Shown here: positions 57,557 through 58,609 of the stretch, piece after piece
How the letters are laid out: every line of letters starts with the position of its first letter
Position numbering within the stretch: position 1 is the stretch's first letter
NCBI GenBank assembly: GCA_029260965.1
Contig: JAJDCG010000001.1
Coordinates: 248,012-312,011 of the forward strand
DNA: 64,000 nucleotides
Reading direction: 5' to 3'
DNA from: Candidatus Levyibacteriota bacterium
Lineage (GTDB): Bacteria; Patescibacteriota; Microgenomatia; Levybacterales; UBA12049
Program-made: the position numbers and the translations under genes
The notes under the pieces: generated by a model
What the model was told of the DNA's origin: nothing
The model's input: the letters and a program-made list of their open reading frames with translations, nothing else
Databases searched by the model: none

Positions 57557-58609
57557 ATGCGGCTCAGGAGCGTGGATTTTGCAGAGAGAGAGAGAGAGAG
57601 AGAGAGAGAGAGAGCTATAGTTACTCATACTTATGATGATATCAAATCTATTGAGAATTTGCTTCTTTCATGGCAGGAATTTTTGCGTGGAAAAAGAAAG
57701 CGCAAAGACGTTGCGGAATTTTCAGTTTATTTCATGGACAATATCTTTTCTCTTCATCAGGAACTGACTGATAAGACATATAAACATGGGTTGTATTCAG
57801 CCTTTAAGATAAATGATCCAAAGCCCCGCGATATTCATAAAGCTCATGTTCGAGATCGTCTTGTCCATCATGCTATTTATAGAGTTTTATATCCATATTT
57901 TGACCGTAAGTTTATTTATGATTCCTATTCATGCAGGACTGATAAGGGTACCCACCGGGCAATTAACCGCTTTAGACAATTTGGCAGAAAGATATCCCGT
58001 AATAATACCCGGACAGCATGGGTCTTAAAATGTGATATTAAAAAATTCTTTGCGAGCATAGATCATAGCATTTTGAAAAAGATTTTAAGTACGCATATTG
58101 AGGATGAAAATATTTTGTGGTTGTTGGGGCAAGTCATTGATAGCTTCAATGTTGATGACAAGAAGGGTGTTGGTCTGCCGCTTGGAAACCTGACGAGCCA
58201 GCTTTTGATAAATATTTATATGAATAAATTTGATCAGTTTGTGAAGCGGAAATTAAAAACCAGATATTATATCCGTTATGCCGATGATTTTGTATTTTTA
58301 AGTAAAGATAAATCATATTTGGAGAATTTAATTCCTAAAGTATCAGTTTTTTTAGAAAAAGAACTCAAGCTATCGCTTCATCCGGACAAACTTTATATTA
58401 AAACGCTTGCTTCCGGTGTTGACTTTTTAGGATGGGTAAATTTCCCAACACACAGAGTTTTAAGAACTGCAACCAAGAAAAGGATGCTTAGAAGATTAAA
58501 ACAAAACACTACAGATGAAAGCCTAATTTCTTATCTGGGGTTAATTGGTCACGGAGACAGTTATAGATTGTCTCAAGAAATTTATAGCATTTTGAAAGAA
58601 AAAAGATAG
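57557..58609 (+). CDS. DGR reverse transcriptase
   Basis: The N-terminal DGR-RT region IENLLLSWQEFLRGKRKRKDV...PKPRDIHKAHVRDRLVHHAIYRVL..FIYDSYSCRTDKGTHRAI, motif 4 GLPLGNLTSQLLINIYMN (SQ in place of retroviral/group II SP) and YADDFVFL (YxDD). It is 351 aa, with no maturase or endonuclease domains. The start is uncertain: ATG 57557 or TTG 57554, upstream of the GA tract. Confidence 0.85.
   Translation: MRLRSVDFAERERERERERAIVTHTYDDIKSIENLLLSWQEFLRGKRKRKDVAEFSVYFMDNIFSLHQELTDKTYKHGLYSAFKINDPKPRDIHKAHVRDRLVHHAIYRVLYPYFDRKFIYDSYSCRTDKGTHRAINRFRQFGRKISRNNTRTAWVLKCDIKKFFASIDHSILKKILSTHIEDENILWLLGQVIDSFNVDDKKGVGLPLGNLTSQLLINIYMNKFDQFVKRKLKTRYYIRYADDFVFLSKDKSYLENLIPKVSVFLEKELKLSLHPDKLYIKTLASGVDFLGWVNFPTHRVLRTATKKRMLRRLKQNTTDESLISYLGLIGHGDSYRLSQEIYSILKEKR
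57583..57614. repeat. (GA)16 dinucleotide microsatellite
   Basis: A perfect 32-nt AG/GA tract. It lies within the first approximately 20 codons of the RT ORF as drawn, where it encodes (ER)n, and about 40 bp upstream of the divergent avd start codon. Confidence 0.95.

Follow-up and report, generated by a model that had tools for sequence, protein, structure and literature searches.

Why should the junction of the avd and reverse transcriptase (RT) genes of a diversity-generating retroelement (DGR) carry a long, perfect microsatellite? Among natural systems that diversify proteins, DGRs are the most extreme, and Patescibacteria are especially rich in them. In the whole stretch of DNA analyzed here (64 kb, 39% GC; hereafter, the window), the sequence at positions 57583–57614 reads GC-(AG)16-CT, i.e., a simple-sequence repeat of 32 nt that is 100% perfect, (AG)16 on one strand and (CT)16 on the other, which the RT frame reads as (Glu-Arg)n and the avd frame as (Ser-Leu)n. 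Direct reading, run counts, and shuffles all bore out the preliminary description of a perfect 32-nt GA tract at this position. Specifically, it is the only dinucleotide run of at least five units in the 64 kb, and shuffling 100 times with dinucleotides preserved never produced even (AG)6, whose 11 matches in the window all fall within the tract. An Rfam covariance-model search revealed one spurious sub-threshold match and no known structured RNA family.

The locus that hosts the tract is a DGR of a Patescibacteria-type genome, with a target gene and its variable repeat (VR), a template repeat (TR), avd on the (−) strand, and an RT gene: a DGR-type RT lies beside a TR/VR pair, the differences within that pair are concentrated at adenines, and an Avd accessory gene is present. 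The target gene (54846–56786; 646 aa) carries the VR (56583–56732, (+) strand) at its 3′ end, and the VR is paired with the TR (57052–57201, (+) strand). In the window, 24 of the 33 mismatches between TR and VR, including nearly all core mismatches, are at TR adenines; in a related population, all TR/VR mismatches (16–22 of 16–22) are at A. The RT ORF (57554–58609, (+) strand) matches RVT_1 with an E-value of 1.5e-22, its body (RVT_1; 57614–58609) beginning with the codon that straddles the end of the tract and closing at the stop, and its homologues number in the thousands in CPR DGR-like loci. The bAvd/DivGenRetAVD gene, recognized by profile matches, is annotated from a TTG start at 57543 (57220–57543, (−) strand), and the avd frame of its body (AKSTLLSRIKEGYLIW... 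to the stop) spans 57220–57582 on the same strand. Pfam bAvd scored this protein at 53.6 bits, above its cutoff of 40, and NCBIfam DivGenRetAVD (NF033474) matched it with an E-value of 3.7e-18 and 65.7 bits, under the curated cutoff of 80, with Avd residues 27–123 aligned to model positions 9–103 of 104. A PDB sequence search with Avd returned nothing useful.

The TR lies on the RT strand past the 3′ end of the inverted avd (window 57022–57246), so any transcript running from the TR to the RT would carry ~330 nt of antisense avd together with the GA tract. The TR(+)/avd(−)/RT(+) order of the window recurs in a related locus (L087), where the target is downstream of the RT on the opposite strand. 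At 56755–56815, a degenerate array of period 8 (CTTTGACA, ~7 copies) extends across the stop of the target gene ~20–80 nt downstream of the VR, the usual place in DGRs for an IMH or an inverted repeat. The sole terminator-like hairpin with a T-run in 56700–58000 is found at 57701–57715 on the (−) strand, within the RT 5′ region and ~70 nt upstream of the avd ATG proposed below; this count is not above that of shuffles.

To place the tract among its relatives, we compared a set of ~175 related loci, including 80 fetched from GTDB genomes and 80 from metagenomes using an RT query without the tract. Junction counts refer to 140 independent avd-RT junctions (13.4 kb) whose RTs share 57–78% identity, and since the loci are phylogenetically related, locus counts are not fully independent. 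Among the best 120 RT homologues (65–74% identity; the named ones mostly Patescibacteria), most carry “RERERE” at the equivalent N-terminal position. In nearly all fetched loci avd stands head to head with the RT, and the simple repeat separates the conserved avd N-terminus from the RT motif “H.Y..II”. We found a strong non-AT repeat in 123 of the 140 independent junctions versus 11 such repeats in the other 717 kb of these loci, which is an enrichment of ~600-fold. Most loci have poly-G (7–14 nt), the closest relatives of the window have (GA)n (10–37 nt), and rarer types comprise (GT)n (L044 and L145), (CT)n (L059), and (CTGG)9 (L137). On a rough RT tree, where the two (GT)n loci do not group as sisters, there are ~26 changes of motif type; such turnover at one site points to selection for repeat-ness and not for a particular sequence. 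By comparison of these junctions, the thing conserved is the presence of a repeat, not its sequence. The N-termini of orthologous RTs, whose comparison the preliminary description had proposed, almost always keep a repeat at this site, (ER)n-type or other, and its motif has turned over.

Several further features of the junction repeats were observed. In essentially all repeat-bearing loci, RT sense coincides with the G-rich or purine strand of the repeat, the (CT)n locus L059 being the lone exception. The (CTGG)9 tetranucleotide of L137 (~2380–2420) is read as (ASQP)n in avd and is in phase at present. Composite tracts of the form GA-G8-GA (L028) and GA-GGG-GA (L004) suggest interconversion between poly-G and (GA)n. 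A hairpin abuts the poly-G directly upstream in L015, L022, L043, L049, L064, L066, L081, and others, with stems that differ by locus (TTTTGCCAGTACTGGCAAAA, GAGCACCATTGGTGCTC, AGCGCCGAGGGCGCT, and GAGGATTACTTGTGGTAATCCTC), and in L025, L032, and L115 complementary arms flank the poly-G itself; the varied stems beside poly-G suggest a conserved structure in the avd N-terminal coding region or leader.

Next to its conservation stands the variability of the repeat in length. In clusters of proteins at 90% identity, RTs with the same downstream sequence differ in the number of (ER)n units and in the upstream frame. Across five assemblies of a Woesebacteria-like population, the sole differences over 5.5 kb are GA runs of 19, 21, 23, 25, and 25 nt. 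The 10 contigs of a JGI sample series have runs of 19, 21, 25 (four contigs), 27 (three contigs), and 31 nt, and otherwise differ in the VR only, barring a single substitution and an indel of one base. In a poly-G population the alleles are G10 and G13, along with a deletion allele that lacks the whole junction; there, L181 lacks ~83 nt relative to L178–L180, with loss of the repeat and of the overlapping avd/RT 5′ ends, and may represent a permanently inactivated allele or an assembly artefact. Variation of the kind that had been put forward as a check is seen in relatives of the window, where repeat number varies in three populations on otherwise near-identical DNA. For the species of the window itself, a search for other samples found a single Logan run (SRR15505512), whose two contigs are identical to the window and are uninformative on tract length because both terminate within (AG)16. 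A harmless functional linker of variable (ER)n/(SL)n length was ruled out because the lengths differ by non-multiples of 3.

What a change in length does depends on where the two genes start. In almost every locus, the RT His codon just past the repeat reads CAT, the complement of which is ATG. In the window, this (−)-strand ATG is at 57626–57628 and is the probable ancestral start of full-length avd; the leader codons from the ATG to the tract (57615–57625, (−) strand; M-S-N-Y-S...) are antisense to RT codons and in phase with them. In repeat-less loci the corresponding ATG shares an open frame with avd (5/5; P = 0.004), as it does in loci with (CTGG)9, (GCG)3, or (AAG)3. On the other strand, the RT ORF of repeat-less near-type loci extends upstream to a conserved ATG (MRNN..PNQISLFD), which in the window corresponds to the “frame B” ATG (MRRNIHPDQISLFD...) at 57517–57519 on the (+) strand; this ATG is antisense to the avd N-terminus and, when the repeat is in phase (n = 14/17, where n is the number of GA units), is the start of the RT. 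Frame B of the RT is the exact in-phase antisense of the avd N-terminus, and since both ORFs are intact through the junction in repeat-less loci, avd and the RT overlap head to head with the repeat within both.

These results change the picture of the junction given earlier, in which the tract lay between an avd start at 57543 and the conserved part of the RT. The NCBIfam Avd model starts 2 residues past the tract with zero start codons between, and a start at TTG 57543 would leave out model positions 1–11. This alignment, the repeat-less loci, and the conservation of an open leader all disfavor TTG 57543 as the genuine start, so that it is probably not the ancestral one; because the probable start is ATG 57628 instead, the tract falls inside the antisense-overlapping 5′ coding parts of both genes and not between them. 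The RT had been assigned 57554 (TTG) and 57557 (ATG) as its only in-frame starts; at n = 16 they share their frame with GTG 57572, and the start conserved for the RT is ATG 57517, in frame at n = 17.

We then asked if the two leaders show signs of being coding sequence. Between the ATG and the repeat, stops are absent from the ATG frame of the avd leader in 40/40 near-type loci (versus 11/40 and 27/40 in the other frames) and in 64/67 far-type loci, i.e., those in which the RT has its own ATG after the repeat (versus 13/67 and 3/67); for the part of the leader that lies outside RT coding sequence, the frame is stop-free in 47/48 (versus 38/48 and 12/48). In near-type loci, the codons TTA, CTA, and TCA make up 10% of the avd N-terminus versus 31% of the remaining avd (P = 4e-11). 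These codons would place stops in the RT leader, and their avoidance keeps that frame open; in far-type loci it is absent. The residues from the tract to the RT His codon vary synonymously (Leu as CTG, CTT, or TTG; Arg as CGC, CGT, or CGG), which indicates that the stretch is translated; past the tract, GA-type loci lack a canonical RT start. On these codon and stop counts, which give three independent signs of translation, both leader ORFs are held open by selection, and the idea that the tract is translated as (ER)n in the RT gains support from the open leader and from the synonymous variation after the tract.

In the poly-G far relatives (L018–L081 and many metagenome loci, e.g., L032, L063, and L066), the RT and avd starts are mutually the complements of His codons, each start being the reverse complement of the 6th–8th (His) codon of the other gene. 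There, for example, ATGAAAATTCAATTGAGCCAT encodes MKIQLSH on one strand and MAQLNFH on the other, in a head-to-head overlap of 18–24 nt around a CAATTG palindrome. Gene callers often give truncated RT or avd products (VENLL.., MDNIL.., or a 107-aa Avd; L087–L096 and the protein clusters), and short-read assemblies often break at the junction repeat, so public annotations of this DGR clade systematically misplace both starts. Phase counting from the N-termini of gene-caller proteins was abandoned, and phases were recomputed from DNA because callers choose shorter starts that avoid the antisense overlap.

To follow the frames through the window, we reconstructed it for each n from 14 to 18. With 14 or 17 units, ATG 57628 opens the avd frame, giving MSNYS(SL)nAKSTLLSRIKEGY..., and ATG 57517 opens that of the RT; a full-length Avd requires n = 14, 17, or 20. 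With the 16 units now present, stops interrupt the avd frame directly upstream of the tract, which leaves TTG 57543 and ATG 57534 as avd starts, and the RT is readable from the frame A starts TTG 57554, ATG 57557, or GTG 57572 (57554–57574, (+) strand). At n = 15 or 18, the RT is readable from the frame C TTG directly before the tract (57579–57581, (+) strand). The window is therefore one unit off the in-phase state, with avd cut off. With an RT start codon available in all three phases, the clearly switched gene is avd rather than the RT, and a switch of the RT with 57554 and 57557 as its sole starts was rejected on the same ground. The preliminary description had one GA unit shift the RT frame; such a shift does change the start in use, and it is avd, not the RT, that loses its start.

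Among GA-type loci, avd can start in one phase in 19 of 29 and the RT in two phases in 22 of 29. Repeat-less loci are all in phase (5/5), and repeat-bearing loci are spread over the three phases as 26:39:44, with a mild depletion of phase 0 (P = 0.02, phylogeny not being corrected for). About half of the poly-G far loci have an avd-frame TTG just after the tract, from which a complete Avd may be possible in any phase. In the JGI population, 0 of 10 contigs are in phase and the VRs differ between samples exclusively at TR adenines, the mark of an active DGR. Overall, the repeat is perfect, is of a length at which it can slip, and is located in the 5′ ORF parts of avd and the RT; unit changes shift the frame relative to the start, and the ORF upstream of the repeat is kept despite many frameshifted alleles.

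With moderate confidence, we propose that the tract is a slipped-strand contingency switch acting mainly on Avd. This reading builds on the conservation of the repeat, its hypermutability, its consequences for frame, and the selection for open leader ORFs, each of which is established by the comparison of loci. A hypermutable repeat would be embedded in the antisense-overlapping 5′ coding ends of both DGR accessory genes: on the (−) strand, avd would be translated from ATG 57628 through the tract as (Ser-Leu)n into the Avd domain, and on the (+) strand the RT would be translated from the conserved ATG 57517 through the tract as (Glu-Arg)n into the RT body. As the two ORFs are exact in-phase antisense partners, one phase (n = 14, 17, 20...) frames both conserved starts, and a single GA unit added or lost through slipped-strand mispairing would shift both frames. 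At n = 16, only an N-terminally truncated Avd would be made (from TTG 57543 or ATG 57534), and the RT would be made from the substitute starts TTG 57554 and ATG 57557. Avd is needed for cDNA synthesis in the DGR of the Bordetella phage system; by that token, out-of-phase alleles should silence diversification, which would make the tract a heritable, reversible, and stochastic switch and the window, at n = 16, “avd-off”. What we infer is the functional off state of out-of-phase alleles and the adaptive value of switching. The contingency locus suggested earlier gains strong support from the relatives, through the conserved repeat, the motif turnover, the polymorphic length, and the open leaders, and turning diversification on and off is the part that we deduce.

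The main observation against the switch is that the out-of-phase JGI population still diversifies its VR; the RT start in every phase of the window, the lack of enrichment for phase 0 among repeat-bearing loci, and the TTG of far-type loci also count against it. It is conceivable, at a likelihood that we put a little short of even, that a large clade of Patescibacteria DGRs gates its own hypermutation by a two-strand repeat switch and that a “diversify, then lock in” regime explains the excess of out-of-phase loci. A lineage with a good variant would persist after slipping back to off, which would cover both this excess and the VR diversity in populations sampled only out of phase, and the whole would constitute a second-order evolvability circuit, with a hypermutable switch over a hypermutator. 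The phase spread, the JGI VR diversity, and the TTG of far-type loci fit transient “on” subpopulations followed by an off lock-in; they also fit a frame-tolerant rheostat or a frame-independent role in cis.

The first of these alternatives, which we regard as unlikely, holds that RNA polymerase slippage or ribosomal frameshifting yields some in-frame product from every DNA phase, so that the repeat would keep Avd and the RT low and noisy whatever its exact length. Such a rheostat agrees with the roughly uniform phases in nature and with the JGI population, which diversifies its VR with all sampled contigs out of phase, and it too requires open leader ORFs on both strands. Polymerase infidelity rescues frameshifted homopolymer tracts in endosymbionts, which counts for it; we know of no established case of bacterial RNA polymerase slipping on GA dinucleotide repeats, which counts against it. 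It leaves unexplained why repeat-less loci are strictly in phase and why the motif type is free, and the length changes, frequent at the DNA level, must alter the in-frame fraction anyway.

In a second alternative, which we consider quite improbable, the tract would lie in a short intergenic region between divergent genes as a non-coding element, regulatory or structural, acting in cis independently of frame either by promoter or leader spacing or as non-B DNA of the H-DNA, Z-DNA, or G4 type, with avd TTG 57543 and a non-canonical RT codon after the tract as the true starts. All motifs seen are classic non-B-DNA formers with the G-rich strand almost always RT-sense, a −10-like hexamer (TAnnnT) directly follows the tract in 21 of 79 poly-G far loci (with the RT ATG 7 nt past the hexamer in 10 of these 21), and the window has TATAGT at 57616–57621. 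However, the leader ORFs through the tract are open on both strands, repeat-less loci keep both long ORFs, the Avd model begins upstream of TTG 57543, and the post-tract residues are translated in GA-type loci that have no canonical start there. A promoter spacer of the porA/hif kind (Gn-TAnnnT-N7-ATG in the poly-G relatives) was tried and rejected: the hexamer is present in just 21/79, the tract alone measures 32 nt, too long for a spacer of 16–18 nt or a −35/−10 spacing near 17 nt, and a promoter scan of 56700–58000 found no sigma-70-like site. The earlier proposal that the tract sits in a shared promoter or leader fails on the last two points as regards a promoter spacer.

The least probable of the three alternatives, and in our view a very improbable one, is a tolerated mutational hotspot, in which the Avd and RT N-terminal leaders are dispensable and slippage-prone sequence persists by mutation pressure alone, which suits the near-random phase distribution and the low-complexity, variable leader peptides but is at odds with a ~600-fold enrichment at one site across 140 loci at 57–78% RT identity, with repeated motif replacement, with coding-level selection on both leaders, and with the decay of unselected microsatellites, especially G-rich ones in a genome of 39% GC.

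If the contingency switch on Avd is right, a conserved slippage-prone repeat in the avd and RT starts would be a simple, heritable, and reversible means of DGR control. It would also account for the many DGR loci that assemblies show as “broken”, with truncated RT or avd calls and contigs ending at the junction. Repeat phase would serve as a readable marker, which could be set against VR turnover in time series of metagenomes. A practical point for annotation is that, in this clade, the genuine starts of avd and the RT overlap on opposite strands and are routinely miscalled.

Repeat-mediated phase variation and DGRs are each well known. Switchable mutators (reversible mismatch-repair inactivation) and methyltransferase “phasevarions” are stochastic, heritable switches of systems that alter many phenotypes or the supply of mutations; these act genome-wide, whereas here the mutagenesis of a single target gene would be gated. 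We know of no repeat switch described in the DGR of the Bordetella phage BPP-1 (mtd-avd-TR-brt), which resembles the window in its RT, Avd, and TR/VR pair with adenine-specific differences. All BPP-1 genes are on one strand with the TR and a spacer directly before brt, whereas in the window avd is inverted and overlaps the RT head to head, with the TR past the avd 3′ end. Our literature search, in which DGR surveys were included and Paul et al. 2017 (Nat Microbiol), which we take to be the main CPR DGR paper, lay outside its range, found no link of DGRs to simple repeats or phase variation.

The (TA)n repeat of hifA/hifB in Haemophilus influenzae offers a likeness in that a single repeat between divergent genes controls both. 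The hifA/hifB repeat and the poly-G/C tracts of porA and opc work at the level of transcription, from a position between the −35 and −10 elements; unlike them, the tract described here is 32 nt long, has no sigma-70-like promoter found around it, and is crossed by ORFs that the evidence indicates are translated on both strands. Closer are the contingency loci of Campylobacter, Neisseria, and Haemophilus (poly-G or tetranucleotide repeats), with which the window and its relatives share a perfect repeat above the slippage threshold in 5′ coding sequence, a repeat number that is polymorphic in near-identical genomes, a frame shift with each unit, and a leader ORF that is conserved despite many frameshifted alleles. 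Those loci switch surface or restriction-modification genes, and the corresponding on/off phenotype here is a predicted one; the genes concerned here are the accessory protein and the reverse transcriptase of a hypermutation system, and, unlike in those loci, one repeat is read on both strands by antisense-overlapping ORFs in a Patescibacteria-type host. What is new, on the explanation that best accounts for these observations, would be a contingency repeat that is read on both strands and controls a hypermutation system.
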